A stretch of 64,000 nt of DNA from Clostridia bacterium (GCA_017435905.1 JAFSEB010000040.1:3796-67795); one strand, 5' to 3'; shown: positions 2,358 through 64,000, counted from the first letter of the stretch. Numbers and translations: made by a program. Notes: generated from the sequence alone by a model not told the origin.

Positions 2358-2535
2358 CCGTTTCCCTCCTGCTGTCTTCACTGCTTCTATGGTATGACAG
2401 AACCGAAGGGTGCGCAAGAGAAAACTTGCCCGACATGTTCGGGCTTTTTTATGCCCGGAAAGGCACGAAAAAGGCAACATGCATCCGTTCAGTACCAAAA
2501 ACGGTACTTTACGGGAAATTCCTCCGTTTTTTCCC

Positions 2536-2564
2536 TTGATAATTAAAGCCGGATGCACTACCAT
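2536..2564 (+). promoter_or_regulatory. Candidate sigma-70-type promoter of the phage-like operon
   Basis: TTGATA (2536-2541), a 17-nt spacer, then TACCAT (2559-2564). Confidence 0.3.
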
Positions 2565-2576
2565 GTTCTTAAAAAC

Positions 2577-2590
2577 AGAACAAATGTTCT
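2577..2590. promoter_or_regulatory. Cheo-box-like LexA operator (GAAC-N4-GTTC)
   Basis: AGAACAAATGTTCT is a perfect inverted repeat, AGAACA/TGTTCT. It lies 13 nt downstream of the candidate -10 and 25 nt upstream of the ATG at 2615. Confidence 0.45.
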
Positions 2591-2614
2591 AATTACAAAA
2601 GGAGGAAATCGAAC

Positions 2615-3181
2615 ATGAAACAGAAAAACGGTTCCTCCGTGCGCATGATCGAAAACCGCATGGTGGATCCCAACGCCCTTGCCGCACACTACGCCGCTGC
2701 GGCATACGGCGATACAAAGGAACAGGAAAAGGCGGCTTATCGGGAAACGGAAAAAAGGCTGTTCGCCCTTCGGGCGCTGCAGGCACGCATGGCGGAAACG
2801 AAGGAGGAGCTCAGCGAACTTGAAAGCCTTGGCATCGATGCGCTTCGGGAGCACAGCGCTTCCCTTGTCAGGGTGCTGCGCCCCGGCATGCGCCTTGAGC
2901 CGGAGGAGGTGCACCGCATGCAGCTTGATATGCTCCGCGGCAGGCTTGCGGCGGATGAACGGGAGTGGAAGCGGATGCGCATCGCCCTCGATTTCATTCG
3001 GGATGATCCCTACTACCCTGCCGTGGAGGCACGCTACCTGAAGGGCATGGGGGATGGGGATGTGGCGCAGCGGCTTTGCTGTGATCCTTCCACCGTGCGC
3101 CGCAACAGGGTGCGCCTTGTGCGCACGCTGGCCCTTCGCCTTTACGGGCTTGGAGGTGTGCTGTGCGTGAACTCTTACTGA
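2615..3181 (+). CDS. Phage late-gene regulator-like protein (ArpU/RinA / sigma-70 region-4-like HTH). It could double as a small terminase.
   Basis: 188 aa. The C-terminal ...YLKGMGDGDVAQRLCCDPSTVRRNRVRLVRTLALRLYG looks like a sigma region-4 HTH. It sits immediately upstream of terL and overlaps it. Confidence 0.5.
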   Translation: MKQKNGSSVRMIENRMVDPNALAAHYAAAAYGDTKEQEKAAYRETEKRLFALRALQARMAETKEELSELESLGIDALREHSASLVRVLRPGMRLEPEEVHRMQLDMLRGRLAADEREWKRMRIALDFIRDDPYYPAVEARYLKGMGDGDVAQRLCCDPSTVRRNRVRLVRTLALRLYGLGGVLCVNSY

Positions 3182-4506
3182 CGGGTACGCCCAATGCAAG
3201 GCAGGCGGAGTTTTTTCGGGCAACGGCACGCCACACCGCCTACGGCGGCGCCCGGGGCGGCGGCAAAAGCTGGGCCATGCGGCGAAAGCTGGTGCTGCTT
3301 TGCCTTGCTACGCCAAACCTCAATGCGCTGCTGCTGCGCCGCACGCTGCCGGAGCTGAGGGAAAACCATGTGGTGCCCCTTTTGAAGGAGCTTCACGGCG
3401 TGGCGGAATATAACGGCACGGAGCGCACCTTCCGCTTTCCCAACGGATCACGGCTGCGCCTTGGCTACTGCGACGGCGCCAACGATGTGTACCAGTATCA
3501 GGGGCAGGAATACGATGTCATCGGCATGGAGGAAGCCACCCATTTTACAGAGGAACAAATGCGCTTTTTGACCACCTGCAACCGTACCGTAAAGGCGGAT
3601 TTCCGCCCACGGATGTACTATACCTGCAACCCGGGCAACGTGGGGCACGCATGGGTGAAGCGGCTTTTTATCGACAGGCAGTACCAAAGCGGCGAACGGC
3701 CGGAGGATTATGCCTTCATCCCTGCAAGGGTGTGGGACAACAAGGTGCTGCTTGCTGCGGATCCCGATTATGTGCGCCAGCTGCAGGCTTTGCCGGAGGA
3801 GCTTCGCCGTGCCCACCTTGACGGCGACTGGGATGTGCACGCAGGACAGTATTTCCGTGAGTTTTCCCGGGAAAAGCACGTGGCGGAACCCTTTTCCGTC
3901 CCCAAATGGTGGCGGCGCTTCCGCTCCATGGATTGGGGGTACAACGATCCCTGCTGCGTGCTGTGGCATGCGGTGGATGGGGATGGGCGTGTGTTCACCT
4001 ACAGGGAGCTGTATGTGCGGCACACGCAGGCATCGGAGGTGGCAAAGAAGATCATCTCCCTGACGGGGGATGAGGAGATCGCCTATACCGTGGCATCGCC
4101 GGATATGTGGCAGAAACGTGGGGCGGTACTGAAGGCGGAGGGCGGCTTTACCGGCGAGAGCATCGCAGAGCTGTTTGCACGCTTTGGCGTTGCGCTGACC
4201 CCTGCGGACAACGCCCGTGTGGCAGGCTGGCAGCGTGTGAGGGAATACCTTGCGGAAAACGAGGCAGGGGAGCCTTATTGGCAGGTGTTTCCCGATTGCG
4301 TGAACCTGATCCGCACGCTGCCCCTTCTGCAGTTTGACTCCCACAACCGTGAGGATGCTGCCGATGGGGATGACCACGCACCGGAGGCGCTCCGCTATGC
4401 GCTGATGTCACGCCCCCGAAAAAGCGAACAGGCCGCAGCAAGGCGGCAGAAACGTTACGATCCTTTTTCCCAGCCCACCGCCCGTGCAGGCTTTATGGAG
4501 CGCTGA
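3163..4506 (+). CDS. terL: Phage terminase large subunit
   Basis: 447 aa. It has the Walker A-like GGARGGGKS, DVIGMEEATHF, and C-terminal acidic nuclease-type motifs (HLDGDWDV, EDAADGDDHAPEA). The GTG start follows GGAGGTG. Confidence 0.9.
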   Translation: MRELLLTGTPNARQAEFFRATARHTAYGGARGGGKSWAMRRKLVLLCLATPNLNALLLRRTLPELRENHVVPLLKELHGVAEYNGTERTFRFPNGSRLRLGYCDGANDVYQYQGQEYDVIGMEEATHFTEEQMRFLTTCNRTVKADFRPRMYYTCNPGNVGHAWVKRLFIDRQYQSGERPEDYAFIPARVWDNKVLLAADPDYVRQLQALPEELRRAHLDGDWDVHAGQYFREFSREKHVAEPFSVPKWWRRFRSMDWGYNDPCCVLWHAVDGDGRVFTYRELYVRHTQASEVAKKIISLTGDEEIAYTVASPDMWQKRGAVLKAEGGFTGESIAELFARFGVALTPADNARVAGWQRVREYLAENEAGEPYWQVFPDCVNLIRTLPLLQFDSHNREDAADGDDHAPEALRYALMSRPRKSEQAAARRQKRYDPFSQPTARAGFMER

Positions 4507-4565
4507 GGAAACAAACACAGGCATACAACAACACAATACAAAACAAAAAAGAGAGGAAACAAGAT

Positions 4566-6164
4566 ATGACCAACAGCAATCGAAACAAGACCGAACGCCT
4601 TTACGAACTTTTTGAAGAATACCGCAGCGCATATGCCGCCGAATGGGACCGCCTTGAGCGCTGCGAGCGCATCTACCGGGGCGACCACTGGCAGGATGTG
4701 CCGCAGCAGGATGAAAACGAGCCCCGACCCGTAACGCCGGTGCTGCAGTCCACCATTGAAAACGTCCGTGCGGACCTTATTGACAACATGCCGGAGGCTG
4801 TCATCGTCTCCGACGGGGCAGGGCATGAGCGTGTGGCGGAAATGCTCACCGCCCTCATTCGGGAAAACCACCGCCTTTGCCGCTTCGACAGGGAATATGC
4901 CAACATGATGCACGACCTGCTTGTGGGCGGCTACATGGTGCAGGAGACCGGCTACGACAGCGAGCTCAACGGCGGCTTCGGCGCAGCATTTCTCCGTGCG
5001 GTGGATCCCCACAGCATCATGTTCGATCCCCTTGTTGCGGATATCCGCCAGTCGAGGGCGATCTTCAAATTTGCACCCTATCCGCTGGATTGGTTCCGTG
5101 CCCATTATCCCGAGCAGGCGGCGGATATGCGGGAGGATATCTTCCGCCCCGTGCGTGTGCAGGATGACCACCTCCGGCAGGAAAACCGGGATATGGTGCT
5201 GCTCATCGAGGCATGGGAACGGGAATACGACAACGAAAGCGGCAGGCACCGTGTGCACATGACAAAGCTGGCAGGCGGCGTCATCCTTGAGGACAGCCGT
5301 GACCACAAGCCCCAGGGCTATTTTGCCCACGGGGAATATCCCTTTGTGGTGACGCCCCTGTTCCTCCGCAAGGGCACGCCCCTCGGCTACGGGTTTGTGG
5401 ATATGTTCGAGACCCAGCAGCGCTATGCGGATAAGCTCGACCAGATCATCCTGAAAAATGCGCTGATGGCATCCCACAACAAGCTGCTCATCACCGGCGC
5501 TTCCGGCTTCGACCCGGAGGATCTTCGCGACTGGTCCAAGGAGGTGCACCGGGGCGAAAGCCTTGCAGGCGTGACATGGTTCCCCACCGCACCGCTGCCG
5601 GGCTACCTTCTCAGCTACGGGGAGCACATCCGCCAAAGCATCCGTGAGGAATCCGGCACCAACGATTTTTCCCGTGGACAGACCTACGGCGGCGTTACGG
5701 CAGCCTCTGCCATCGCTGCGCTGCAGGAAGCCGGCAGCAAGCGCAGCCGCATGATCGCCCGGGCGGTGCACAGCGCCTTTGAGGAAGCCGTCCGTCAGGA
5801 GCTGGAGGTGGAGCGTGAGTTTTGCGTGCTGCCCCGCCGCATCACCCTTGAAAATGCGGAGACAGGCAGGGAGGAAGCCATCGCCTTCACCGGCGAGACC
5901 ATGTTCGAGCTTACCGCACGCAAAAACCGCCTGCCCCTTGAGTTCGGCGTCAGCGTCAAGGCGCAGAAGGAGAACCGCTTCAGCGTGGCGGCCCATAATG
6001 AGCTTGTGCTGAGCCTTGTGAAGCTCAACATGATCACCCCTGCCATCGGCCTTGATATGCTGCTTTTCGACGGCAAACGGGAAGCGCAGGCGAAGATGCG
6101 TGAGCATCTCCGCATGGAGCAGGAGCAGGCACAGCAGGCGCAGGCTGCACCGCTGCAGCGTTAA
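4566..6164 (+). CDS. Phage portal protein
   Basis: 532 aa with RBS AGAGAGGAAA, located directly after terL. Size, position and the N-terminal ...RIYRGDHWQ... region are typical of portal proteins. The family was not verified by HMM. Confidence 0.75.
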   Translation: MTNSNRNKTERLYELFEEYRSAYAAEWDRLERCERIYRGDHWQDVPQQDENEPRPVTPVLQSTIENVRADLIDNMPEAVIVSDGAGHERVAEMLTALIRENHRLCRFDREYANMMHDLLVGGYMVQETGYDSELNGGFGAAFLRAVDPHSIMFDPLVADIRQSRAIFKFAPYPLDWFRAHYPEQAADMREDIFRPVRVQDDHLRQENRDMVLLIEAWEREYDNESGRHRVHMTKLAGGVILEDSRDHKPQGYFAHGEYPFVVTPLFLRKGTPLGYGFVDMFETQQRYADKLDQIILKNALMASHNKLLITGASGFDPEDLRDWSKEVHRGESLAGVTWFPTAPLPGYLLSYGEHIRQSIREESGTNDFSRGQTYGGVTAASAIAALQEAGSKRSRMIARAVHSAFEEAVRQELEVEREFCVLPRRITLENAETGREEAIAFTGETMFELTARKNRLPLEFGVSVKAQKENRFSVAAHNELVLSLVKLNMITPAIGLDMLLFDGKREAQAKMREHLRMEQEQAQQAQAAPLQR

Positions 6165-6179
6165 CGGGAGGCGCTCCCC

Positions 6180-6386
6180 ATGAAAAAGTTTGAACGCATG
6201 ACGAAGAAGGGAGCGGAGGCAGGGCTTTCCTGCCTTCTCTCCATCTGCACGGATACGGAGCAGAAAGCGGCGGACAGGATCGCAGCGGCAAAGGTGCTCA
6301 TCGACTTCGGCCGCAAGGCGGAAGCAGCGGAGGATGGCGCACTTCGGGTGGTGCTGGAGGGCGTGCCGAAGGAGTTTTTATGTTAA
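6180..6386 (+). CDS. Small hypothetical protein (68 aa) in the phage-like operon
   Basis: A GGGAGG RBS lies 6 nt before the ATG. The gene is tightly packed between the portal gene and the 623-aa gene. No recognisable motif was found. Confidence 0.45.
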   Translation: MKKFERMTKKGAEAGLSCLLSICTDTEQKAADRIAAAKVLIDFGRKAEAAEDGALRVVLEGVPKEFLC

Positions 6387-6413
6387 AAAATTAAGAAAAG
6401 GAAGGAAAAATAC

Positions 6414-8285
6414 ATGTATTGGGAGAATTTATACAATAAGAAGAACAAGGTAAACAAGCCTGTGGAGCTGGATTATTTTCAGCAGGAAAAGGTGAAAGAG
6501 TACCGGCAGCTTGCCGATGATGCAAACCGCTGGCTGGATCTTCCTACGGTACCTTCACGGCTTTCCTCTTCGGGGATCTCTATACCGGGCTTTCTGCATG
6601 AGGAGCAGAATGTCAGGAACATGCAGGCAGCCCTCGGCGTAGAGGAAGACGGCGATTGGGGCCCCGTAACGGAAAAAGCATTCCGCACCACCCTTATCAA
6701 CCAGCGTGACGGGGCGGAAAACGCCATTTCGGAGATATTTGCCGCTGCTGCGGCGGAGCAGGAACGGGCGGAGAAGGCGCAGCCGCAGCTTGCCTACGGC
6801 ACGGCGCAGGTGGGGCAGTACCTTGCCGCACCGGCATCAGTACAGAAACCGGTCTACCTTACCGCAGACGGCAGCCGCACCAATGTACCCACCGGCACTT
6901 CCCCGAAAAAGGAACAGGTCTACCTTACCGCAGACGGCAAGCGCACCAACGTGCCGGGCATCACCGCAAGCCCCGGTTCCTCCGGCAGCAAGGGCAGCAC
7001 CGGTATTGCAGCCTATGACCGCACGATGCAAACGGCAGATGCTTCCAGCCTTGGCAGCACCGCAAAAAATACCCTTGCTGCGCCAAGTTATAACCGCACT
7101 GCCCTTACTGCAGACGAGCCCCACGGCGCCGCAGCGGAGCGTGGGAACATCTACAACACCGCAGACGGCAAACGGACGAATGTGGTAGGCGGCGCACGGA
7201 ACAGCGGCATTGGCAGGCCGACAGCCATGGAAAAAGGAGAACCCATTGCCCGCTTTGGCGGTGCAGTGCCCCAAAACAGCAGCCCGACCGACGGCTATCA
7301 AGGTGGGCCTGTGGATGAGACGGTGCTTAGCAGCAAGACAAGCGAGCTTTTGAGTAACGTAGCGAATCAGATGAAACAAACTTACTTAACATACAAAGTA
7401 GATGCTGAGCCGTGGAGTGAAGAATGGAACATGCAGCGAATGAAGAAAAAAGAGCTGCACGATAATTGGCAAAAGGCGCAGTGGCTTTATTGGGATTATC
7501 TGCTGAATCATGAAACGGATGAAATGAACGCAGATGATGTCTATGCAGTTTCACCGAATCTTTTGATTGATTTGGCTGTAAGCGATGGAAAGGATTCGAT
7601 TGCATCGCACGGATATAACAAGGACAATTATCCGCATGTTTCGGTTATAGATAATGAATTGAAACAGTTCAGAGATGAGGGTGCCTTATACACATATGCG
7701 GGCAGCAAATTGAACTATTATACAAAGGTTAGTGGTTTGGAGCATATGTGCAGCATCTATTCGGTGGATTGGGGAAACGGCAATGTTGAATTCGTTACAG
7801 GACCGATTGTAAGCGGAACAATAATCAAAAACGAAAAGAAAAACACGGAAACCCCAAATGTAATCATGCCGTTTGCTGCGAGCATAATTGGTGCGAAAAA
7901 CTACACCGCTGAAATGGAAAAGATATTCAGAGGCGCAAAAGTTGAGTATGAAGGGATCATTCATTCGCATCCAAGCTATTTATCTGATACTTATGGCTAT
8001 GATAATAACGATGAGTTTTCCTGGGGTGACGGATTAGCTGCGCTGCTTGCAGGCCAAATAACCTTGACAACACAAGATAGTACTATGTTTGTCCTGAACC
8101 AGGATGAGGCACTGGAGGTAGTGATATCAGGATTAAAGGCTGATATTGCAAGACTCTTAAAGAATAGCAACTTAGAAAAAAGAGATGAAATTGATTGGAA
8201 CTCTATCATCCAAAGCTCACAAGATTTCCGCAGGGGAAGAAATTTTACAACTCTTCCGTACCACGCTTTTGACGCACGGGAATAA
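6414..8285 (+). CDS. Modular 623-aa protein with a PG_binding_1-like motif, tandem repeats and a C-terminal HSHP...DEFSWGD (JAB/DUF4329-like?) domain. It is the candidate main gene of a polymorphic locus.
   Basis: RBS AAGGAAGGA. There is no signal peptide and no TM helix. NMQAALGVEEDGDWGPVTEKAFRT is a peptidoglycan-binding-type motif. The motif (V/I)Y(L/N)TADG(S/K)RTNV occurs three times. The C-terminus reads GIIHSHPS-x12-DEFSWGDG...ITLTTQDSTMFVL. Confidence 0.8.
   Translation: MYWENLYNKKNKVNKPVELDYFQQEKVKEYRQLADDANRWLDLPTVPSRLSSSGISIPGFLHEEQNVRNMQAALGVEEDGDWGPVTEKAFRTTLINQRDGAENAISEIFAAAAAEQERAEKAQPQLAYGTAQVGQYLAAPASVQKPVYLTADGSRTNVPTGTSPKKEQVYLTADGKRTNVPGITASPGSSGSKGSTGIAAYDRTMQTADASSLGSTAKNTLAAPSYNRTALTADEPHGAAAERGNIYNTADGKRTNVVGGARNSGIGRPTAMEKGEPIARFGGAVPQNSSPTDGYQGGPVDETVLSSKTSELLSNVANQMKQTYLTYKVDAEPWSEEWNMQRMKKKELHDNWQKAQWLYWDYLLNHETDEMNADDVYAVSPNLLIDLAVSDGKDSIASHGYNKDNYPHVSVIDNELKQFRDEGALYTYAGSKLNYYTKVSGLEHMCSIYSVDWGNGNVEFVTGPIVSGTIIKNEKKNTETPNVIMPFAASIIGAKNYTAEMEKIFRGAKVEYEGIIHSHPSYLSDTYGYDNNDEFSWGDGLAALLAGQITLTTQDSTMFVLNQDEALEVVISGLKADIARLLKNSNLEKRDEIDWNSIIQSSQDFRRGRNFTTLPYHAFDARE
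6851..6955 (+). repeat. In-frame tandem coding repeat (two 39-nt copies, 66-nt period)
   Basis: GGTCTACCTTACCGCAGACGGCA(G/A)(C/G)CGCACCAA(T/C)GT(A/G)CC occurs at 6851-6889 and 6917-6955. A degenerate third copy lies at 7149-7185. Confidence 0.8.
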
Positions 8286-8303
8286 TTAAAAGAGGAGACA
8301 AAC

Positions 8304-8744
8304 ATGGAAAAGAAGGGATATCTGCTTCTCTATACGCTTTGCATTGTGGAGGGCATTGCTCTGATCATATTGTGCGTGTGCGGCGGTGCGTTGGAACTGG
8401 TGCGGGGGCTGTTGGCGCTTTCAGCATATGACTACCCCAACTGGAATATGGAAGTGGCCGCCTATCCGAAAAAGATCGCGTATGTGATCGGCAGGGATAC
8501 GGAAATCGATCTTTCAGGTACTGTTGTCAGTTATACCTTCGGGTGGCACGAACCGGAAGAGGACGAGATTTATGCTTATGATGACCCCATATTCGAAGTG
8601 GATACCTCGGCAGTGGATCTGACGAAGGAAGGGACATATGAAGTCGTCATTTCAACGGTTGATCCTACAGACTATGGTGCCGAATGCATCTTGCCGATCC
8701 AAGTGATCGCACCGCAGGAACAAAGTGCACATGTTATGCCCTGA
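8304..8744 (+). CDS. Single-pass membrane protein with one Big_3-like Ig domain (paralog A)
   Basis: RBS AGAGGAG. The N-terminal TM is LLLYTLCIVEGIALIILCVCGG, followed by YPKKIAYVIGRDTEIDLSG...DLTKEGTYEVVI...CILPIQVIAP. Confidence 0.75.
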   Translation: MEKKGYLLLYTLCIVEGIALIILCVCGGALELVRGLLALSAYDYPNWNMEVAAYPKKIAYVIGRDTEIDLSGTVVSYTFGWHEPEEDEIYAYDDPIFEVDTSAVDLTKEGTYEVVISTVDPTDYGAECILPIQVIAPQEQSAHVMP

Positions 8745-8760
8745 TGCGGGAGGGAAGACG

Positions 8761-9168
8761 ATGAAAAAGCAAAAAGATAATTGGCTGATAACATTGTGGA
8801 TCATTGAAAGCATTGCTCTTATCTGTGCTTTGGTCATGGTCGGACGGGTGCGGAATCTCGATGCAAGCAGGGATACAGATAATCCCGATTTTTATGCAAA
8901 AATCAGAAATTTTCCCGATAAAGTGGTTTATGTGGCGGGCGTGGATACGGAATTGGATCTGCGTGGCTGCACCATATCGGAATCGAGGCTTTTTGGTGCG
9001 GACGACGGGACCGCGGAAGATCTTGTCTCCAACTTAGGCACCCACTTTACCGTTGTGTCGGAAGATATCGACTTTTCCACCCCGGGCATTTATGAAGTGC
9101 GCATCCGTGGTTATGATACGGAATGTGCCTTCCCCATCGAAGTCATCGACCCTGCGGCATTGGAGTAA
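8761..9168 (+). CDS. Single-pass membrane Big_3-like Ig-domain protein (paralog B)
   Basis: Start ATG 8761 follows GGGAGGGAAG. The TM is WLITLWIIESIALICALVMVG, followed by FPDKVVYVAGVDTELDLRG...FSTPGIYEVRI...CAFPIEVIDP. Confidence 0.75.
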   Translation: MKKQKDNWLITLWIIESIALICALVMVGRVRNLDASRDTDNPDFYAKIRNFPDKVVYVAGVDTELDLRGCTISESRLFGADDGTAEDLVSNLGTHFTVVSEDIDFSTPGIYEVRIRGYDTECAFPIEVIDPAALE

Positions 9169-9206
9169 AACCCAAGCCCCGGCACACGGCTTTCCGTGCG
9201 TCGGGG
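9022..9206 (+). repeat. Direct repeat copy 1 (3' end of paralog B plus junction stem-loop)
   Basis: About 97% identical by eye to 11863-12046 (roughly 5 mismatches and 1 indel in 185 nt). Confidence 0.85.
9177..9206 (+). repeat. Conserved cassette-junction stem-loop
   Basis: CCCCGGCACACGG-CTTT-CCGTGCGTCGGGG. Homologous hairpins lie at 10161-10187, 11078-11107, 12018-12046 and 13950-13977. Only a weak T tract follows. Confidence 0.6.
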
Positions 9207-9632
9207 TTTGATGCACCGTTTCCCGGCTATCTCAGGCTGACCGAAAAGAGTGTCGAATACCTCTGCATGCTGCATTCGCATCCCTCACGGCGTGATCCAT
9301 CTGATGATAACGATGAGTTTTCCTGGGGCGACGGCCTTGTTGCAGCTGTTTCCGGCAAAATCTATCTGACCACGCCGCATGGGAATGTTTATGCTTTAAG
9401 TCAGGAAGATGCTAAAACAGTAATTGATACAGGACTCGATTGGGACAAAACTGTTTTTGCCCAAAAGAAGAAGCCGCTTTTGAAGGCGTTGTGGTATGGG
9501 CTCAATCCAACTGATGCTTTTTACTATAATGTGCTTGCTGACTACGATGAACATAGGAAGAAAGCGGCACAAACACTCCCCGGATACAATTATGAGACGT
9601 TTGATGCTAAGACCTATAACACATATAAATGA
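9207..9632 (+). pseudogene. Orphan 5'-truncated copy (CT-1) of the 623-aa protein's C-terminal domain
   Basis: The frame reads ...FPGYLRLTEKSVEYLCMLHSHPSRRDPSDDNDEFSWGDGLVAAVSGKIYLTTPHGNVYAL... and ends at 9632. It starts right at the hairpin with no RBS. The first in-frame ATG after the hairpin is 9267 (MLHSHPS). ORF 9123-9632 overlaps paralog B in another frame. Confidence 0.55.
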
Positions 9633-9655
9633 TCTTTGATACAAGGAAGGCTAAT

Positions 9656-10153
9656 ATGGAGCAAGGGAGCAAGAAGCGGATTTCGAAAGAAATAATTGTG
9701 AAATATGTGGCTGCAATGGCGATTATTATGGTATCTGCGCAGGTGATCTTCAGGGGCTGTTTTCCGTTTTTCTTGCTTGCGAATGGAGTTGAGTCCACAT
9801 ATCCCCAAGGCTACCGTATTCACACGCTCCCTGCAAAACAGGTGTATATAGCGGGACAGGATACGGAACTGGACCTTACCGGGGGCGAAATCTGCCATAG
9901 CAATGAACAAAACGAATTTCCTGAACAGTATGGTTACTGCACAACGGAATACTGTGAAGACCCTATTCCCATGGAAGCGGCATTGGCGGAATATGAATGG
10001 CTGAGCGTTGAAACCGATGCGGATTTTTCCATCCCGGGAGAATATAAGGTGACATTTTGGTATCCTAATTTCTTTGATGGTATGGATGATGGCAAGATGC
10101 TCTCCTGCTCCTTCCCCATCGTTGTCATTGACCCCAAAGATGCAGTCAGATAA
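9656..10153 (+). CDS. Single-pass membrane Big_3-like Ig-domain protein (paralog C)
   Basis: Start ATG 9656 follows AAGGAAGG. The TM is YVAAMAIIMVSAQVIF, followed by LPAKQVYIAGQDTELDLTGG...FSIPGEYKVTF...CSFPIVVIDPKDAVR. Confidence 0.7.
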   Translation: MEQGSKKRISKEIIVKYVAAMAIIMVSAQVIFRGCFPFFLLANGVESTYPQGYRIHTLPAKQVYIAGQDTELDLTGGEICHSNEQNEFPEQYGYCTTEYCEDPIPMEAALAEYEWLSVETDADFSIPGEYKVTFWYPNFFDGMDDGKMLSCSFPIVVIDPKDAVR

Positions 10154-10160
10154 AACGGAT

Positions 10161-10187
10161 CCGGCGTGCGGTTTTTCCGCGCGCCGG
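10161..10187 (+). repeat. Conserved cassette-junction stem-loop (variant)
   Basis: CCGGCGTGCGG-TTTTT-CCGCGCGCCGG, located 8 nt after the stop of paralog C. Confidence 0.5.
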
Positions 10188-10603
10188 GCTTGATGTACCG
10201 CTCGCCCGGCTATCTGAGCTTGATCGAAAACGGAGCAAAAGTGGAGCACCTCGGCATGCTGCATTCGCATCCGTCGAGAGCAAATGGCGAAGATAATGAC
10301 GAGTTTTCTTTGGGCGATGCTATTGTTTCTGTAGTGTCAAGAAGAATCTACTTGACTACGCCAGAGGGATATGTATACGCACTGGACAGGAAAGACGGCT
10401 GGAAACTTATCGTGCCCGGATATAAAAGGGAACGCGTAAATGCCGCTGATTGGCAACTTTATTACGGAAGCGTCACGGAAGAAGAACTTCCTAAATGGAT
10501 CGTGGAAGCTTTAGCCGAAGATTATGTTGCGAAGCAGGATGCAAAATCAAAAGGAAGTAATTTTGTGACGTTTGACATTAATACCTATAACACACGAAAG
10601 TAG
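10188..10603 (+). pseudogene. Orphan 5'-truncated copy (CT-2) of the 623-aa protein's C-terminal domain
   Basis: ...SPGYLSLIENGAKVEHLGMLHSHPSRANGEDNDEFSLGDAIVSVVSRRIYLTTPEGYVYAL...TFDINTYNTRK*. No RBS is present. Candidate starts are GTG 10166 (inside the hairpin) or ATG 10193. Confidence 0.55.
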
Positions 10604-10611
10604 AGGGTTTT

Positions 10612-11070
10612 ATGGACAAAAAACAGACAAGCCGAAGCTGGCTTAAAACGCTGCTGATTGTGGAAAATGTGATCATCATCGCAGTTTTGCTGCACTTTGG
10701 TGTTAAGGAGATCAAGAGAGTGGTAAGTTATATTCGTTATCCAAGCTCTGTGTATGTAATCAACATACATCGCTATCCGGACAAGCTGGTTTACGTTGCC
10801 GGAGAAGATACGGTGCTGGATCTTACCGGAGGCGAACTGTGCCTGAGCAGCGAGGGCGGCTTTACAAACGGGTTTCCTTGCGAATTTAATCCGGAACGGA
10901 AAAACATGGGAGAAGGATATTGTGAGATCGTATATTCTATGACAGAAGATGAATATGAAACGAATGCAGATCTTTCCGTGCCAGGCAGATACTATATTCG
11001 CTTTTCGCTGGATAGAGGAACTTGCTCCTTCCCCATCGTGGTCATCGACCCTAAAGATGCGGTGAAATAA
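10612..11070 (+). CDS. Single-pass membrane Big_3-like Ig-domain protein (paralog D)
   Basis: RBS AGAGGG. The TM is WLKTLLIVENVIIIAVLLHFGV, followed by YPDKLVYVAGEDTVLDLTGG...LSVPGRYYIRF...CSFPIVVIDPKDAVK. Confidence 0.75.
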   Translation: MDKKQTSRSWLKTLLIVENVIIIAVLLHFGVKEIKRVVSYIRYPSSVYVINIHRYPDKLVYVAGEDTVLDLTGGELCLSSEGGFTNGFPCEFNPERKNMGEGYCEIVYSMTEDEYETNADLSVPGRYYIRFSLDRGTCSFPIVVIDPKDAVK

Positions 11071-11077
11071 GCCCAAG

Positions 11078-11107
11078 CCCCGGCACATGGCTTTCCGTGC
11101 GCCGGGG
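11078..11107 (+). repeat. Conserved cassette-junction stem-loop
   Basis: CCCCGGCACATGG-CTTT-CCGTGCGCCGGGG. Confidence 0.55.
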
Positions 11108-11163
11108 CGAATGCACTCTTTGTCCGGCCGGGGCTTCTTAAAGGAAAGCGGAGCAAAGACCAA
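11108..11163 (+). pseudogene. Short remnant of a third orphan C-terminal cassette
   Basis: CGAATGCAC...TCCGGCCGGGGCTTCTTAAAGGAAAGCGGAGCAAAGACCAAG parallels the first ~55 nt of CT-1 and CT-2 (..PGYL.L.E.GAK..). Homology then stops and the next Ig-like gene begins. Confidence 0.4.
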
Positions 11164-11188
11164 GGGCAGTAAATAAAGTGAGGAATCA

Positions 11189-11623
11189 ATGAAAAAAAGC
11201 CATTTGCAGCACGCTTTGCTGCTCTATGTGATTTGTGTTGCTGAAAGCTTGTTTTTAATTGCGTATTCAGCAGCGTGGGTTGGCTCGCGGATCATGGTTT
11301 CCATGTCGAACCCGAGGGACACGGTCAACAGGGTAACGGTCGTGAACTACCCGGAACAGTTGGTATATGTTCTTGGTATAGATACGGAACTGAAACTTGA
11401 CGGTTTGACTGTGGCTTATGCAAAATACGGGGATGATGTGACCGAAAATGATCTCTACGAAATAGGCAGTCAATATGTAACAGTGGATACATCCCGGGTC
11501 GATCTTACAACGCCGGGCGTATACGAAGCATACATCGTGCTGTTTGACACATGCTGCATATTGCCGATAGAGGTTATCGATCTACAGCAATATGCTGCAG
11601 CGGAAGGGGTGGAGCATCGGTGA
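11189..11623 (+). CDS. Single-pass membrane Big_3-like Ig-domain protein (paralog E)
   Basis: RBS GTGAGGA. The TM is ALLLYVICVAESLFLIAYSAAWVG, followed by YPEQLVYVLGIDTELKLDG...LTTPGVYEAYI...CCILPIEVID. Confidence 0.75.
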   Translation: MKKSHLQHALLLYVICVAESLFLIAYSAAWVGSRIMVSMSNPRDTVNRVTVVNYPEQLVYVLGIDTELKLDGLTVAYAKYGDDVTENDLYEIGSQYVTVDTSRVDLTTPGVYEAYIVLFDTCCILPIEVIDLQQYAAAEGVEHR

Positions 11624-12009
11624 AAGCAAAAAAAGACAACTGGCTGATCATATTGTGTGTTGTGGAAAGCATGGCGATCCTTTTGCTCGCAGCATATCAA
11701 TTGCACAGGAAGTACGGCTCGCATATTGAATATTATGCGCTGGCGTCCCATTTACCCAACAAGATCGCATATGTGGCAGGCGTGGATACAGAGCTCGACC
11801 TGACCGGTGCCACCGTTATCGAGTCAAGCAACACAGCGTATGCGGTGGGCGAGGAATACGACCTTGTCTCCAACCTTGGCACCCACTTTACCGTTGTGTC
11901 GGAAGATATCGACTTTTCCACCCCGGGCATTTATGAAGTGCGCATCCGTGGTTATGATACGGAATGTGTCTTCCCCATCGAAGTCATCGACCCTGCGGCA
12001 TTGGAGTAA
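11620..12009 (+). CDS. Single-pass membrane Big_3-like Ig-domain protein (paralog F)
   Basis: The GTG start at 11620 overlaps the stop of paralog E (GTGA) and follows GGAAGGGGTGGAG. The TM is WLIILCVVESMAILLLAAY, followed by LPNKIAYVAGVDTELDLTG. The C-terminal 48 aa are nearly identical to paralog B. Confidence 0.7.
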   Translation: MKAKKDNWLIILCVVESMAILLLAAYQLHRKYGSHIEYYALASHLPNKIAYVAGVDTELDLTGATVIESSNTAYAVGEEYDLVSNLGTHFTVVSEDIDFSTPGIYEVRIRGYDTECVFPIEVIDPAALE

Positions 12010-12046
12010 AACCAAAGCCCCGGCACACGTTTTCCGTGCGTCGGGG
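11863..12046 (+). repeat. Direct repeat copy 2 (3' end of paralog F plus junction stem-loop)
   Basis: About 97% identical to 9022-9206. The hairpin is at 12018-12046. After it only about 10 nt (CGAATGC..) of the orphan-cassette 5' end remain. Confidence 0.85.
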
Positions 12047-12122
12047 CGAATGCTTTTAAAATGGCAAATGCAGTATGCTGCCTGAGGGCGGTATTTGACG
12101 GGATCCGCCGAAGAAAGGCAAG

Positions 12123-12812
12123 CTACTCCCGGCAGCTTGGAGTGCAGGTATGAATGGTCATGATCTTCATCAGGGTGCCGCTTTCTTCGTCCACGGCGGA
12201 ATCAAAGGTCATCTTTGTGCTGAAATCGGCGGATGTGTCGGAAGTGACGGTGAGAGACTCATCAAACGCAGTCGTTCTGAACCACCGCATCTGCATATCA
12301 AGAAGCGCACGGCTTTCCTGCGGATGTTGCGAAGCAAGGTCAGGTGTGTAGATCTCATACAGGGCATCAAGCATTGCCTGAAGTGATACGGGGATCTCAT
12401 CGGGGGCTTCATCCTTTGGCACTACATAGCTGATGATCACCTTGTGTACGGGCAGGTCTGCGTGCATGGGCGGCCAGATACGGGAAAAGCCGGTAAGGGA
12501 AAAGGCGATAAAGGTATCATCCTCCGTGTGGGTGGACATGTTGCGGATATAGAGATCATAGGGCGGCCCGGGGGCTTTCCAGTATCCGTCCGCAAGGATC
12601 TCCACGCCGTCATCGGCAAGGGCTTCATTGCAGCGTGCGATGAGTGCATCGGAGCGGATCTCCAGCCCTGCTTTTTTTCGTTCCCGGGCGGCGGAGGCGA
12701 TGTCGGAGCCGGTCAGCCACTTTGCAATAAAAAGGATGCATGCAAAAACCGCTGCAGCAATCCATATCATGCGGCGAAGGGTGCGGGTCTTTTTGGCGGA
12801 TATGTTTTGCAT
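12123..12812 (-). CDS. Membrane-anchored hypothetical protein (229 aa) on the opposite strand inside the array
   Basis: Start ATG 12812 lies 7 nt after AAGGAG. It has an N-terminal basic stretch plus the TM IWIAAAVFACILFIAKW. No family motif was recognised. Confidence 0.6.
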   Translation of the reverse strand: MQNISAKKTRTLRRMIWIAAAVFACILFIAKWLTGSDIASAARERKKAGLEIRSDALIARCNEALADDGVEILADGYWKAPGPPYDLYIRNMSTHTEDDTFIAFSLTGFSRIWPPMHADLPVHKVIISYVVPKDEAPDEIPVSLQAMLDALYEIYTPDLASQHPQESRALLDMQMRWFRTTAFDESLTVTSDTSADFSTKMTFDSAVDEESGTLMKIMTIHTCTPSCRE

Positions 12813-13015
12813 AGCGGTGCTCCTTACGCTTTTTTCCAATATAGCATGAAAGACGGCATGCGTAAAGCACGGTGAGGTGTCTTATTGACGCACGGGACAG
12901 AAAGGAATATGCTTAGACTGAAGATGACACAGCTTTTGCGCAGCATACGGCTGCGAAAAACGTGGTTCGTATTATATTGGTCACCCGAAACAAACGAAAA
13001 AAGGAGGCGCTGCAC

Positions 13016-13486
13016 ATGGAAAAACAGGAAAAACGCAATAACCTGCTGCGAAGGATCCTGACGGCAGAAAACCTGCTGCTCCTGCTTTTGATCGGCTTTT
13101 TATGGATGCGGTCCTGCGTGGAGAATTTCGACGGTGTGGAGATTCTTTATGATGCCGGCATCCACCGTTGGCCGGATAAGCTCACCTATGTGATCGGCGA
13201 GGATACGGCGCTTGACCTGACGGGCGGCGTGATCTGCGCCCACGAGTATGACCGGCCGGATGAACCTGCCCGTTCCTGCGTTTCCTTTGCAGGGAAAGAA
13301 ATCGACCACGGCGAGGACAGCTTTACCTACACCATGCTGGAAGCCTGGGAAGACGGGGAATTGACATCGGATATCGACTTTACACGGGAAGGGGTATACA
13401 CCGTCAGGATCCTGCATCAGGATTGGACAGAACTGTGTTTCCCCGTAACGGTGGTGGCGCCGGACAGCCCGGCGGCGCCGCACTGA
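13016..13486 (+). CDS. Single-pass membrane Big_3-like Ig-domain protein (paralog G)
   Basis: Start ATG 13016 follows AAGGAGG. The TM is ILTAENLLLLLLIGFLWM, followed by WPDKLTYVIGEDTALDLTGG...FTREGVYTVRI...CFPVTVVAP. Confidence 0.7.
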   Translation: MEKQEKRNNLLRRILTAENLLLLLLIGFLWMRSCVENFDGVEILYDAGIHRWPDKLTYVIGEDTALDLTGGVICAHEYDRPDEPARSCVSFAGKEIDHGEDSFTYTMLEAWEDGELTSDIDFTREGVYTVRILHQDWTELCFPVTVVAPDSPAAPH

Positions 13487-13504
13487 CGGTGAAAGGAGAA
13501 CACC

Positions 13505-13945
13505 ATGGAACGAAAACAGAGCAGCTGGGTGAAAACGCTTTTTATCGTGGAAAACGCCATCCTTGCGGCGGTGCTGCTTTGCTATCTGCTGGTTAAGGGA
13601 ATCATGTGGTATGAAGACGAGTGGGTGCGCCACGGCAACATCCACCGCTATCCCACAAAGCTCACCTATGTGGCAGGTGTGGACAAAGAGCTTGACTTGA
13701 CGGGCGGCGAGGTCTGCTTCAGCACCGGCTTAGACCAATCCAAAGGCATATTCTGCGCTTCCGATGCGGCCCGTGCGGACGGGCAGAAAGGGCGCTGCAA
13801 GGCGATCCTGCCCATGGCGGAGGCGAAGGTTTCCACCAATGCGGATCTGGACGTGCCGGGGCAGTATTATGTGCAGGTGGAATACCGGGATAGCACCTGC
13901 TTCTTCCCCATCGTGGTCATCGACCCCAAAGATGCGGTGAAATAA
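13505..13945 (+). CDS. Single-pass membrane Big_3-like Ig-domain protein (paralog H)
   Basis: RBS AAAGGAGA. The TM is WVKTLFIVENAILAAVLLCYLLV, followed by YPTKLTYVAGVDKELDLTGG...LDVPGQYYVQV...CFFPIVVIDPKDAVK. Confidence 0.75.
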   Translation: MERKQSSWVKTLFIVENAILAAVLLCYLLVKGIMWYEDEWVRHGNIHRYPTKLTYVAGVDKELDLTGGEVCFSTGLDQSKGIFCASDAARADGQKGRCKAILPMAEAKVSTNADLDVPGQYYVQVEYRDSTCFFPIVVIDPKDAVK

Positions 13946-13949
13946 ACAA

Positions 13950-13980
13950 ACAGGCGCACGGCTTTCCGTGCGCCTGTTTT
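13950..13980. terminator. Terminator at the end of the array (homologous to the junction stem-loops), shared with the convergent gene
   Basis: ACAGGCGCACGG-CTTT-CCGTGCGCCTGT, followed by TTTT and preceded by an A-rich run. Confidence 0.7.
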
Positions 13981-15425: not shown

Positions 15426-16205
15426 ATGGCACGAGTGTTGGATAAAGAAGCCATTCTTGCACGGCTTTCCGCCCTTCCCGGCGCAGTGGGTTTTTACTAT
15501 AAGGATCTTTTGACCGGCGAGGAGCTCGGCTTCAATGAAAACGAGGAATATGAAGCTGCCAGCGTCATCAAACTGCCCATGTTTGCGGCGGCGGCAAAGC
15601 TGGTGAGCGAAGGCAGGGCAAGCTGGGAAGATCAGCTTCTTTGCAAGGCGGAGGACAGGGTGCCCTCCTGCGGCGTGCTGCGCTTTTTTGACGATGGCAT
15701 CAAGGCTTCCCTGAAGACACTTTGTGCGCTGATGATCACCATCAGCGACAACATGGCCACCAACATCATCATGCGCCATTTCGGCATTGAGAAGCTCAAT
15801 GAAGAGTTCCGTGCCATGGGCCTCCAAAAGACCCACATCGAGCGGCTTCTTTTCGACAGCAAGGCCGGCGCCGAGGGCAAGCAGAACAAGATCGTCCCCA
15901 AGGAGATGGGCATGCTGCTGGAGCAGGTGTGGCGGCATGAGTTTATCGATGAAGCCACCTCCGAAACGGTGGAGGAGATCCTTCTTGAGCAGCAGATCAA
16001 CCACAAGATCCCCGGCTACCTGCCCGGGCATATCGACGTGGCGCACAAGACCGGCGAGGACAGCGGCATCACCAACGATGTGGCGGTGGTCTACGCCAAG
16101 GAACCCTTCGTGATGTGCGTTGCCACCAACCGCACCGATACCACGGCAGCGGAGATCGCCATGCGTGAGATCGCCCTGATGCTGGTGGGGGACGAAGAGG
16201 AATAA
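15426..16205 (+). CDS. Class A beta-lactamase-family serine hydrolase
   Basis: 259 aa with SVIK (SxxK), ISDN (SDN) and HKTG (KTG) motifs in the canonical order. There is no signal peptide, so it may not be a true secreted beta-lactamase. Confidence 0.75.
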   Translation: MARVLDKEAILARLSALPGAVGFYYKDLLTGEELGFNENEEYEAASVIKLPMFAAAAKLVSEGRASWEDQLLCKAEDRVPSCGVLRFFDDGIKASLKTLCALMITISDNMATNIIMRHFGIEKLNEEFRAMGLQKTHIERLLFDSKAGAEGKQNKIVPKEMGMLLEQVWRHEFIDEATSETVEEILLEQQINHKIPGYLPGHIDVAHKTGEDSGITNDVAVVYAKEPFVMCVATNRTDTTAAEIAMREIALMLVGDEEE

Positions 16206-62142: not shown

Positions 62143-63117
62143 TTATTCAACCCTGACGCGCGGGTCAATGTAGGTGTAGAGAATATCAAGCACGAAGTTG
62201 GCGATAATAACCATCAGTGCAATGATATAGTTGGAAGCCTGCAGCATCGGGTAGTCCCTTCGCATAACGGAGTCTACCATAACACGGCCCATGCCCGGCC
62301 AGGTGAAGAGCACTTCGATGGAGAAGGCACCGGTGATGATGAACGCAAGGCTCATGACGATCATGTTGGTGGTAGGCAGCATGGCGTTGGGCACGATATG
62401 GCGGTTGCGCACCTGGCGCTCGCTGAGGCCCTTGGCACGGGCGGTGAGAACGAAGTCCTCGCCGTAAATATCAACGATACTGCCGCGCATGATCATCAGG
62501 TAGCTGCCGAAGCATGCCAGCGCATAGGAGATGGCAGGAAGCGCAAGGTGGCGGAACAGGTCTTTGAGGTATGCCCAGTTGACCGAATTATACTGCACAC
62601 CTGCCGTGAGCATGCCGTTGAAGGGCGCCCACCCAAGCTTGACGCCGAAGATCAGCAGGAAGATCATGGCGAGCCAGAAACTCGGCACGGCGTAAACGAG
62701 CATTGTGAAGGAGGTAATGCCGATATCCAGTTTCTTGCCGTGATGTGCACCGGCAATAATACCGCCTACAACACCTATTATGATGCTGAGCGGTACCGAT
62801 GCGGCACCAAGGATCAGCGTGTTGGCGATCTTATCCTTCAGCACCGTCCAGACATCTTCGCGATACTGGAACGATTGACCGAAATCAAAGGTGATCATGG
62901 ACTTAAGGTAGTTGAGGAACTGGATCGGCAGGGGCTTGTCAAGGCCGTAGAGCTTCTCCATGGCGGCACGGGCTTCCGGATCGGAAACGATTTCCTTCGA
63001 AAGCATGGCGACCGGATCGCCGGGCATCAAACGGAACAGCACGAAGTTAAAGGTAACGACGAACAGAAATACGAAAAGCGTATACATCAGTCGTTTTGAA
63101 AGATACCGTAAACTCAC
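62143..63117 (-). CDS. ABC permease (OppB type)
   Basis: 324 aa starting MSLRYLSKRLMYTLF..., with ...FVLTARAKGLSE.... Confidence 0.9.
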   Translation of the reverse strand: MSLRYLSKRLMYTLFVFLFVVTFNFVLFRLMPGDPVAMLSKEIVSDPEARAAMEKLYGLDKPLPIQFLNYLKSMITFDFGQSFQYREDVWTVLKDKIANTLILGAASVPLSIIIGVVGGIIAGAHHGKKLDIGITSFTMLVYAVPSFWLAMIFLLIFGVKLGWAPFNGMLTAGVQYNSVNWAYLKDLFRHLALPAISYALACFGSYLMIMRGSIVDIYGEDFVLTARAKGLSERQVRNRHIVPNAMLPTTNMIVMSLAFIITGAFSIEVLFTWPGMGRVMVDSVMRRDYPMLQASNYIIALMVIIANFVLDILYTYIDPRVRVE

Positions 63118-63887
63118 TTCTTCTTCATTCTCCTTCCCTTAGTGGGTTTATATGATCCTGCCCGGGGGGGCTGTTATACCGGGGGGAGCAGGTCATAGCA
63201 AATTCAGACACGATGACAATTGTATTCTTTTTTCCCTCTCAGTAAAGGGATTTTGTCGAAAAGCAAAATGACATTTTTGCATCTTAAAATTGCAGGATGA
63301 GCCGGGAATGTAATAACGTTTTTTACATGGAAAACAAAAAAATATTTGTCCTCGCATGAAAGAAAGTGTGCGCTGCAAAGGTTCAAAGAAACAGCAGTTG
63401 GGCAGACACCGAAAAACGATTGCTGCCGAACACACAAAAGCTAATAAATGCATACTAAATATTACGAAAGGTAATGCAATATTAATGTTCACATAAAAAT
63501 ATGTAAATTATATTTTAAACTTATTATACAGGAGCAGCGGGAATACCGCAAGCGACAATTTGTATTAAAATTGGAACTTCTTAGTGGGCTTTATATATAT
63601 AAAACGGCGAAAAATACGTGGAAAACATTGATAAAAAACAAACAAGTTGTACGGAAAAACACCTGCGCCATATCGCTTTGTCAGGGCAGAAAAGGGGTTG
63701 TTTCTGCGCTAACAATGAAGGAAATGAAAACAAAAACTTTCATTTTCATAAAAGCAAAAATGCGATACGGAAAAAGAAAAAAATTCCCCGGGGGTAGTCA
63801 CTCTTTTCGGGAAAGAACGTTTCTGCTATACTGTAAGAAACGGCGCAAGGCCAATTTTTAATTCGTAAGAAAGGGACTGTTTTATAT

Positions 63888-64000
63888 ATGGGAATGGTAC
63901 TGTTAACCGCCCTCGGTGTGGGCGGTGCAACGGCGATCGGCGCCGTGCTGGGCGTCATCTTCAAAAAAACAACGCACAAATTCAGCGACACTGTGCTGTC
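63888..64000 (+). CDS. 5' end of a membrane protein gene (partial). Possibly a ZIP-family metal transporter.
   Basis: The frame is open to the window end: MGMVLLTALGVGGATAIGAVLGVIFKKTTHKFSDTVL.... It opens with a hydrophobic helix. The family is only guessed. Confidence 0.35.
   Translation, partial: MGMVLLTALGVGGATAIGAVLGVIFKKTTHKFSDTVL

Follow-up and report, generated by a model that had tools for sequence, protein, structure and literature searches.

What does a pair of phage packaging genes do in a bacterial chromosome when no capsid gene accompanies it, and when the genes that follow are a large modular gene and an array of small membrane-protein genes? This question is raised by a chromosomal locus of an uncultured gut Clostridia bacterium, which occupies positions 2536-13980 of a stretch of 64,000 nt (GCA_017435905.1 JAFSEB010000040.1:3796-67795; hereafter the window, with all positions counted from its first letter). 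According to the open reading frame (ORF) map and translations, the plus strand carries a promoter-like site, a LexA-type box and the genes for a 188-aa regulator, the large terminase TerL, a P22-type portal protein, a 68-aa protein and a main protein of 623 aa. The array after the main gene comprises eight paralogous genes for transmembrane (TM) proteins with an immunoglobulin (Ig)-like domain, two 5′-truncated copies of the main-gene C-terminus and one minus-strand gene. We consider it likely that this is a chromosomal polymorphic toxin–immunity locus whose family has not been described before, and that it was grafted onto the 3′ end of a conserved packaging operon, which derives from a phage or a gene transfer agent (GTA) and is probably under SOS control. 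An earlier note, made from the sequence, had listed a Cheo-type box, terL, the portal gene, a 68-aa ORF and the 623-aa gene and had placed all genes but one on the plus strand; the ORF map and profile matches confirmed both points, the exception being the gene at 12123-12839. The lack of capsid, tail, lysis and integrase genes was also borne out: no head, tail, lysis or integrase homologues were found in the 64 kb window, and tblastn searches with the head genes of relatives came back empty.

The evidence that carries this assignment comes from the main gene. Homologues of the 623-aa protein were rare (three among 5.8 billion proteins), and a scan of viral contigs gave no match. One homologue, P0001, is encoded on contig L001 of a Clostridia metagenome-assembled genome (MAG); here and below, L0xx denotes loci of relatives and P00xx homologous proteins. 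P0001 shared 95% identity with the 623-aa protein across the N-terminal 42% only and was unrelated beyond. Kinase, regulator, terL, portal and 68-aa genes are present on the L001 contig as in the window, and the two DNA sequences are 98.5% identical from 2401 to 7205, after which no homology is left. Compared with L002, the window is 96.5% identical up to 7266, and homology then ends as well. Replacement of the C-terminus from strain to strain had been set beforehand as the decisive check of the toxin model, and it was indeed observed. Near 7350, still inside the main gene, GC steps from ~0.60 to 0.41. The main protein thus combines a conserved N-terminus with a strain-variable C-terminus, of which at least three types were encountered. 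In the constant part, the PG_binding_1-like (peptidoglycan-binding) motif reached significance in the L015 orthologue (4.9e-5, 23.9 bits, just over threshold). Homology of the N-terminal half to the virion-module protein c9 was tried and rejected (hhalign probability 0.14%). One c9 member (L032, 16476-17270) bears an N-terminal PG-binding-like motif (GYxPP..V..LQ..LGV..DG.WGP.T..AY) very like that of the toxins, which the other 41 members lack. The main toxin gene of L013 (8045-10273) contains an in-frame stop between 8497 and 8534, either a nonsense mutation or a sequencing error.

The C-terminus of the window shows the residues of a JAMM metallohydrolase, which in the family alignment are conserved as E (25/25), HxH (35/35), S (31/35) and D (34/35), matching the signature "E, H[ST]H, S, D" given for Tox-JAB-2 (DUF4329) by Zhang et al. 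(PMC3482391). While Pfam returned no DUF4329 match on the 623-aa protein itself, the two orphan fragments of the array yielded sub-threshold matches to DUF4329 (0.004 and 0.03) and Prok-JAB (0.011). Searching 1.84 billion representative proteins with a profile of the C-terminus retrieved 43 clusters. About ten of these were short orphans with a common starting point in the profile, immediately before HSHP, and several were full-length proteins with PG-binding-like N-termini. Two members, P0072 and P0069, are Rhs-borne: P0072 combines RHS_repeat (3.5e-12) with DUF4329 (1.2e-5, 25.6 bits), and P0069 begins with the end of the Rhs core. A search of PDB sequences with the profile gave no match. 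The AlphaFold2 (AF2) model of the C-terminus (pLDDT 90.5, pTM 0.81) had JAB/MPN proteins as its nearest folds, at weak scores, and a Foldseek comparison with viral structures was uninformative. Because of the JAMM motif, the sub-threshold DUF4329 and Prok-JAB matches, the Rhs-borne copies and the weak fold matches of the model, we treat the C-terminus as a divergent member or sister of the Tox-JAB-2 JAMM domains.

Relatives' loci, fetched via the Ig-like family and via the portal gene, revealed that the order of regulator, terL, portal, 68-aa gene, main gene and array recurs in at least five species (window, L012 (= L003), L009/L013, L014 and L015). The polymorphic-toxin grammar proposed in the earlier note, consisting of a main gene, a small gene and orphan cassettes, likewise recurs in at least five species. 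Every C-terminus type came with its own downstream partner. JAB C-termini, whether in main genes or in fragments, were always followed by a TM-Ig gene (window, L002, L003/L012, L008, L009, L014, L082-84 and L086). The P0001-type C-terminus has a copy in L015 (46% identity), where it is followed by a convergent homologue of the 238-aa protein encoded on the minus strand of the window. Given this pairing, the 238-aa gene is best read as a candidate orphan immunity gene against the toxin of the sister strain L001; a P0001-type C-terminus remnant was sought beside it in the window and was absent. The third type is the main C-terminus of L013. Orphan copies of it occur in L009 (191 aa, 79% identity) and in L014, each followed by a TM protein of 111-118 aa. 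Pfam gave no match on the P0001-type and L013-type C-termini or their partner proteins. Among the JAB cassettes, identity between C-terminal tails correlated with identity between the Ig ectodomains encoded next to them (Mantel r = 0.38, p = 0.011, n = 11), which fits cassettes that move or evolve as units. The link between toxin and portal is clade-specific: in L087, the same toxin family adjoins alanine racemase and no portal gene is present. L086 (220-4870), from a more distant lineage, encodes two full-length toxins in tandem, each followed by a protein with two Ig-like domains; one of these two proteins has a lipobox.

The composition of the array was as the earlier note had described it, namely eight TM and Ig-like paralogues interleaved with 5′-truncated C-termini. 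The paralogues share 22-36% mutual identity with 12 invariant columns, and the orphan fragments are 28-33% identical to the main C-terminus, with an invariant HSHPS...NDEFSxGD block. Since the fragments retain just ~15-50 residues before HSHP, through to the stop codon, the catalytic Glu is missing. Every Ig-like gene has a Shine-Dalgarno sequence; both fragments have none and are promoterless. The start codon of the sixth Ig-like gene is most probably GTG 11620, where a Shine-Dalgarno sequence is present, rather than ATG 11551. Standalone elements downstream of the main gene are the two fragments (9123-9632 and 10166-10603) and the candidate orphan immunity gene (12123-12839). Repeats mark the junctions of the array (9019-9206 versus 11860-12046, 96%; 11020-11103 versus 13895-13974, 86%), and the HSHP..NDEFSWGD block itself forms a further repeat (8000-8059 versus 9302-9361, 82%). 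Such junction repeats could mediate recombination.

The Ig-like proteins constitute a small family (31 clusters in 5.8 billion proteins), for which Pfam offered only InlK_D3 (0.088). The AF2 model of the first one (pLDDT 89) consists of one long N-terminal helix and a seven-strand sandwich, and Foldseek retrieved Bacteroides cell-surface proteins (best E 4e-3, probability 1.0), then Big_3, Rib and InlK. An outward orientation of the Ig-like domain is suggested by N-termini rich in Lys, by cysteines conserved in the beta domain and by a double-Ig homologue with a lipobox in L086. Seven of the eight paralogues carry a Glu in the predicted TM helix (I[VI]E[NSG], VAES or VVES), while the third (9656-10153) has IVKY; the Glu is shared by several relatives, e.g., L012 and L084. 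As a Glu within a TM helix is unusual for a simple anchor, an interaction within the membrane may take place.

With regard to expression, the candidate operator AGAACAAATGTTCT, the sole GAAC-N4-GTTC in the 64 kb window (0.7 expected by chance), follows the -10 hexamer at a distance of 13 nt and precedes the start codon by 25 nt. In L001, L009, L012, L013, L014 (here with one substitution) and L015, a LexA-type box precedes the orthologous regulator gene by 21-26 nt, while the intergenic DNA around it has diverged across loci. Conservation in seven loci, including the window, would be consistent with membership in the LexA (SOS) regulon. Another palindrome, AGTACC-N6-GGTACT, precedes the box by ~70 nt and the -35 hexamer by ~30 nt. 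These six relatives have a similar one at the same relative position, with 1-2 arm substitutions in L009, L013 and L014; it may represent a further operator. The 188-aa protein, which the earlier note had called ArpU/sigma-like, proved to be a phage-type regulator with a sub-threshold sigma-70 similarity (sigma70-ECF, TIGR02937, 8e-4, below cut-off); the ArpU identity found no support in NCBIfam or Pfam. Induction by DNA damage and subsequent activation via the sigma-like protein would be the most economical reading of how the operon is controlled. No LexA box was seen upstream of the portal-less toxin gene in L087. Coordinates of all features are compiled in Table 1.

Table 1 Features of the locus and its flanks in the window (aa, amino acids; HTH, helix-turn-helix; SD, Shine-Dalgarno sequence)
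Feature	Position	Strand	Evidence and remarks
Conserved palindrome AGTACC-N6-GGTACT	2491-2508	.	Read from sequence; upstream of operon promoter
Sigma-70-type promoter-like site TTGATA-17-TACCAT	2536-2564	+	Consensus match only
LexA (Cheo)-type operator candidate AGAACAAATGTTCT	2577-2590	.	Perfect 14-bp palindrome; sequence pattern and conservation
Sigma-like/HTH phage-type transcriptional regulator gene, 188 aa	2615-3181	+	phrog_36 7.6e-8
Large terminase gene terL, intact	3163-4506	+	Terminase_6N 4e-12; phrog_979 3.5e-52
P22-type portal gene, intact	4566-6164	+	P22_portal 1.5e-22; phrog_156 1.4e-54
Conserved 68-aa gene	6180-6386	+	Homologues adjoin terL-portal in 19 loci
Putative main toxin gene, 623 aa	6414-8285	+	No family above threshold in any library
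Constant N-terminal part of main gene	6414-7205	+	PG_binding_1-like motif (residues ~60-95), three to four TADGxRTNV repeats
Variable C-terminal module of main gene	7206-8285	+	Helical pre-toxin region and JAB/JAMM domain with E..HSH..SWGD
TM and Ig-like gene 1, candidate cognate immunity gene of main C-terminus	8304-8744	+	SD
TM and Ig-like gene 2	8761-9168	+	3′ end 9019-9206 96% identical to 11860-12046
Orphan C-terminal fragment 1, HSHP to stop codon	9123-9632	+	No catalytic Glu, no SD
TM and Ig-like gene 3, paired with orphan fragment 1	9656-10153	+	SD
Orphan C-terminal fragment 2, HSHP to stop codon	10166-10603	+	No SD; tail resembles L012/P0003 main C-terminus
TM and Ig-like gene 4, paired with orphan fragment 2	10612-11070	+	SD
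TM and Ig-like gene 5	11189-11623	+	SD
TM and Ig-like gene 6, probable GTG start	11620-12009	+	C-terminal half near-identical to that of gene 2
Gene for 238-aa TM-anchored protein	12123-12839	-	Promoter-like site 12866-12838, terminator-like site 12139-12119
TM and Ig-like gene 7	13016-13486	+	Promoter-like site upstream, 12885-12913
TM and Ig-like gene 8	13505-13945	+	SD
Closing hairpin, strong palindrome, 14-bp stem	13948-13979	.	Common to locus and convergent lipoprotein gene
Lipoprotein gene, 427-453 aa	13994-15355	-	No family match; flanks locus, convergent
Class A beta-lactamase gene	15426-16205	+	Beta-lactamase2 2.6e-61; flanks locus

The packaging genes show no sign of degeneration. 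A Walker A motif (GGARGGGKS) and the nuclease aspartates are readable in the TerL sequence. Comparison of the window with L009, both of which lack capsid genes, gave ratios of nonsynonymous to synonymous substitution rates (dN/dS) of 0.085 for terL, 0.17 for the portal gene, 0.17 for the 68-aa gene and 0.25 for the regulator gene, at a dS of ~1-1.3, which is saturated. The flanking beta-lactamase and lipoprotein genes gave 0.17 and 0.20; the genes of the packaging operon are hence about as constrained as the beta-lactamase gene. Strong purifying selection on terL and portal indicates that the packaging genes are no decaying remnant, and the term "remnant" used in the earlier note does not hold, the capsid-less pair being present in ~19 species. 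As to the 68-aa protein, a weak match of a 21-column C-terminal tail to the TerS family c12 (hhalign probability 10%) leads us to the tentative suggestion that it is possibly a TerS-like C-terminal remnant.

Scanning species-representative genomes with the portal profile yielded 68 loci from Clostridia, Christensenellales and Oscillospiraceae MAGs of ruminant and human guts. In group A (~45 species, terL ~62-66% identical), a conserved ten-gene head operon encodes TerS, TerL, portal, a candidate scaffold, the major capsid protein (phrog_1357, 1e-68), a virion structural protein and others; the scaffold gene was named from its position only and has no family match. Conservation ends ~6.5 kb past the portal gene. 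As an example, L026 (8161-16731) also encodes a 478-aa virion protein and a 277-aa protein. The head operon recalls a candidate podovirus-like GTA of Faecalibacterium, in which GTA I (ten ORFs) is separated by 125 kb from GTA II with its tail and lysis genes (bioRxiv 10.1101/2024.11.15.623857). Both are conserved across species and combine a P22-type portal with virion genes, a likeness of organisation. The lineage of the window differs from GTA I in that it keeps TerL, portal and the 68-aa gene, while a regulator and the toxin array replace TerS and the head genes. In the ~45 group A operons, neither toxin nor Ig-like genes were found, scaffold and major capsid genes following the portal gene instead, which answers the concern that the array proteins might be ordinary virion components of complete prophages.

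Group B (~19 species, terL 69-91% identical; L016-L030, L033, L038, L048 and L049) has a capsid-less terL-portal pair alone among housekeeping genes. The pair is under purifying selection (pN 0.13-0.30 versus pS 0.58-0.86, the nonsynonymous and synonymous proportions). A major capsid gene was located ~7 kb upstream on the same strand in L033, L038 and L049 and on the opposite strand in L027. Typical neighbours are PolA, TyrRS, TrkAH and pyruvate phosphate dikinase, and a homologue of the 68-aa gene is often present. To our knowledge, no function has been described for a capsid-less TerL–portal pair. Of a complete head module (TerS, TerL, portal, scaffold and major capsid), the window contains only TerL and portal, and no head genes were found within 10 kb in L012-L015. 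Toxin arrays were seen only in those terL-portal loci that are most closely related to the window; in L004 and L018, the lipoprotein gene that closes the locus of the window comes directly after the portal gene.

The remainder of the window, flanking the locus on both sides, consists of housekeeping genes, and the GC content drops from ~0.58-0.61 in the flanks to 0.46-0.50 across 7-12 kb. In L004, L008, L009 and L018, the lipoprotein and beta-lactamase genes are again found next to the portal gene or the array, also where the upstream flank is a different one. Between 24000 and 64000 we noted genes for glycogen synthesis and two genes for signal peptidases, together with two ABC transporter sets of the Opp type and members of the LrgA and LrgB (holin/antiholin-like) families; the 25/45 families listed included none from phages or secretion systems. 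In its last kilobase (63001-64000), GC falls to 0.40.

Judged by its architecture, the locus appears to belong to the general class of polymorphic toxins but not to the MuF, Rhs, CDI (contact-dependent inhibition) or LXG systems. It would work most like the phage-associated (MuF-type) and the orphan-array (CDI/Rhs) systems. With MuF toxins (Jamet et al. 2017, PMC5576092; "MuF phage-capsid-like system", Zhang et al. 2012, PMC3482391) it has in common that the toxin gene, variable in its C-terminus, comes shortly after the portal gene, that a small gene follows and that the carriers are gut Firmicutes, some MuF copies residing in prophage remnants. MuF toxin genes, however, directly follow the portal gene of a capsid-bearing phage, whereas here the 68-aa gene intervenes and neither capsid nor other head genes are adjacent. 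Pfam detected no MuF domain, at E <= 0.1 for the window protein and at E <= 0.01-0.05 for relatives. The orphan cassette array, the membrane-anchored, probably outward-facing immunity candidates and the occurrence of the family away from the portal gene (L087) set it further apart. CDI (cdiA-CT/cdiI) and Rhs orphan arrays likewise consist of a main gene and subsequent 5′-truncated C-termini, each with an immunity gene, and short conserved junction sequences could allow replacement of the main C-terminus in both cases. Unlike these, the locus has no VENN or PxxxxDPxGL motif and neither two-partner secretion (TPS) nor a type VI secretion system (T6SS). Its whole-module breakpoint lies after the TADGxRTNV..GGAR repeats, and its orphans begin just before HSHP, inside the catalytic domain. 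Colicins and pyocins are SOS-regulated bacteriocins that are released by lysis. They resemble the locus in the LexA-type operator upstream, the toxin devoid of a signal peptide and the linked immunity genes, but here the setting is a chromosomal phage-packaging operon of a Clostridia host, no lysis gene was seen and the toxin has a PG-binding motif.

Toxins with related catalytic domains allow a closer comparison. Rhs and other Tox-JAB-2 (DUF4329) toxins have the same E, H[ST]H, S, D motif, JAB/MPN proteins are the nearest, weakly scoring folds of the AF2 model, and members of the family sit on Rhs C-termini (P0072, P0069). The window family differs from them in its Pfam scores (14.6-17.5 bits versus 28.6), a longer spacer between HxH and S..D, a PG_binding-like N-terminus instead of Rhs, PAAR or LXG, and a TM Ig-like partner in place of Imm-NTF2-2 or a CdiI-like cytoplasmic protein. 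Tox-JAB domains are established parts of polymorphic toxins, and Tox-JAB-1 of Bacteroidetes is paired with the lipoprotein immunity Imm65 (PMC3482391). In that pair, too, a JAB toxin meets an extracytoplasmic, membrane-tethered immunity protein. By its description, the Bacteroidetes system differs in lineage, in its Rhs-borne toxin and in the alpha+beta fold of the immunity protein. The earlier note had found extracytoplasmic Ig domains unusual for immunity genes; an extracytoplasmic immunity protein has a precedent in Imm65. Of its statement that no known trafficking or demarcation module is recognisable, the absence of LXG, MuF, Rhs and signal domains stood, while the C-terminus turned out to be recognisable as Tox-JAB-2-type and the N-terminus as PG_binding_1-like.

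Could the toxin instead travel in a particle? Its gene lies one small gene past the portal gene in at least five species, and TerL, portal and the 68-aa protein, which are under strong purifying selection without adjacent capsid genes, might have been kept as parts of a vehicle. The toxin would then, as in MuF systems, bind the portal or be packed in capsids encoded elsewhere by a split GTA-like element, whose particles carry it to neighbours. The major capsid genes ~7 kb upstream in L033, L038 and L049 indicate that the gene set can be dispersed. Head packaging was proposed for MuF toxins by Zhang et al., and in ~45 relatives the head genes form a ten-gene operon comparable to GTA I of Faecalibacterium, which is separated by 125 kb from the tail and lysis genes. 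Yet head genes are missing from the 64 kb window and, in L012-L015, from a range of 10 kb, and outward-facing immunity fits a toxin acting from outside better than one injected into the cytoplasm. Because the toxin family also occurs at portal-less loci (L087 next to alanine racemase, L086 as tandem pairs), while its N-terminal half shows no profile similarity to c9 and no member has a Pfam MuF domain, capsid delivery becomes less probable and the grafted array is favoured; we regard such delivery as unlikely.

Replacement of the C-terminus from strain to strain, arrays of orphan 3′ fragments and eight diversified partners are not features of endolysins. These points, the presence of the same C-terminal domain on Rhs toxins and the lack of a holin beside the locus make it very unlikely that the main protein is a phage-derived, endolysin-like wall hydrolase for lysis or remodelling of the producer itself, with the Ig-like proteins as regulators or inhibitors and no role as a weapon between bacteria. 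A PG-binding motif combined with an enzymatic domain, the missing signal peptide, the late-operon-like context and the SOS-type box upstream would be in agreement with such a hydrolase. A prophage remnant in decay, joined by unrelated surface-protein genes as hitch-hikers and devoid of any toxin–immunity function, would account for the lack of capsid, tail, lysis and integrase genes and for an array lower in GC than its flanks. However, dN/dS values of 0.08-0.25 on regulator, TerL, portal and 68-aa genes, ORFs that are all intact in several species, and the conservation of operator and catalytic motif speak against decay, which we consider exceedingly improbable and largely refuted.

In the toxin–immunity model that we prefer, the main protein would consist of a constant N-terminal part and an exchangeable C-terminal JAMM/JAB metallohydrolase module of the Tox-JAB-2 kind, and every type of C-terminus would be neutralised by a dedicated small protein anchored in the membrane. 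In the case of JAB C-termini, the putative immunity protein is a single-pass protein with an extracytoplasmic Ig-like domain, which may neutralise by binding the variable part of the toxin domain after HSHP. Silent 3′ toxin fragments with expressed immunity genes, together with the orphan immunity gene, would confer protection against relatives, and the fragments could serve as material for replacing the C-terminus via the HSHP..NDEFSWGD block and the gene-end repeats. The PG-binding motif and the outward-facing partners suggest that the toxin acts at the cell envelope. Having no signal peptide, it might leave the cell through lysis of a DNA-damaged subpopulation that expresses the operon, similar to colicins or phage toxins.

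Several observations weigh against this model. The DUF4329 (PF14220) matches of the fragments (14.6 and 17.5 bits) stay below the cut-off of 28.6, and the top PDB hits of the C-terminus model in Foldseek (BRCC36, Rpn11/Rpn8 and CSN5) are weak (E 4e-3 to 0.7, TM-scores 0.17-0.33). Canonical Tox-JAB-2 (DUF4329) is a proposed nuclease with cytoplasmic immunity (PMC3482391, PMC10469887), for which reason the envelope target is an inference in the present case. The outward topology of the partners is deduced from the positive-inside rule, the conserved cysteines and one lipobox homologue, and the co-variation of tail and Ig ectodomain could stem from simple linkage alone. No N-terminal trafficking or secretion domain was found in the 623-aa protein (signal-type, LXG, WXG, Rhs, PAAR, MuF or TPS; Pfam, NCBIfam and PHROGs). 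Finally, the model does not explain the retention of TerL and portal. Retained across tens of percent of sequence divergence with no capsid genes beside them, TerL, portal and the 68-aa TerS-like protein might represent a domesticated SOS-induced machine that loads or exports the toxin, either by themselves or together with capsids from other loci, a conjecture that we regard as distinctly unlikely.

If it were true, such a packaging-derived export machine would constitute a delivery system distinct from MuF, T6SS, PVC (Photorhabdus virulence cassettes) and tailocins. In any case, the locus draws attention to a TerL–portal pair that is conserved without capsid genes in ~19 species and has relatives in a GTA-like operon of ten head genes. 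The toxin and packaging genes may work together, or an SOS-controlled promoter may be all that they have in common. The probably outward-facing partners argue for an action at the envelope in at least this Tox-JAB branch and thus bear on the function of JAB toxins, which have been proposed to be nucleases. With its N-terminus of the peptidoglycan-binding type, its JAMM C-terminus and its membrane-anchored Ig-like partners, the locus would add a new polymorphic-toxin family to the gut and rumen Clostridia, in which few antagonism systems have been characterised.

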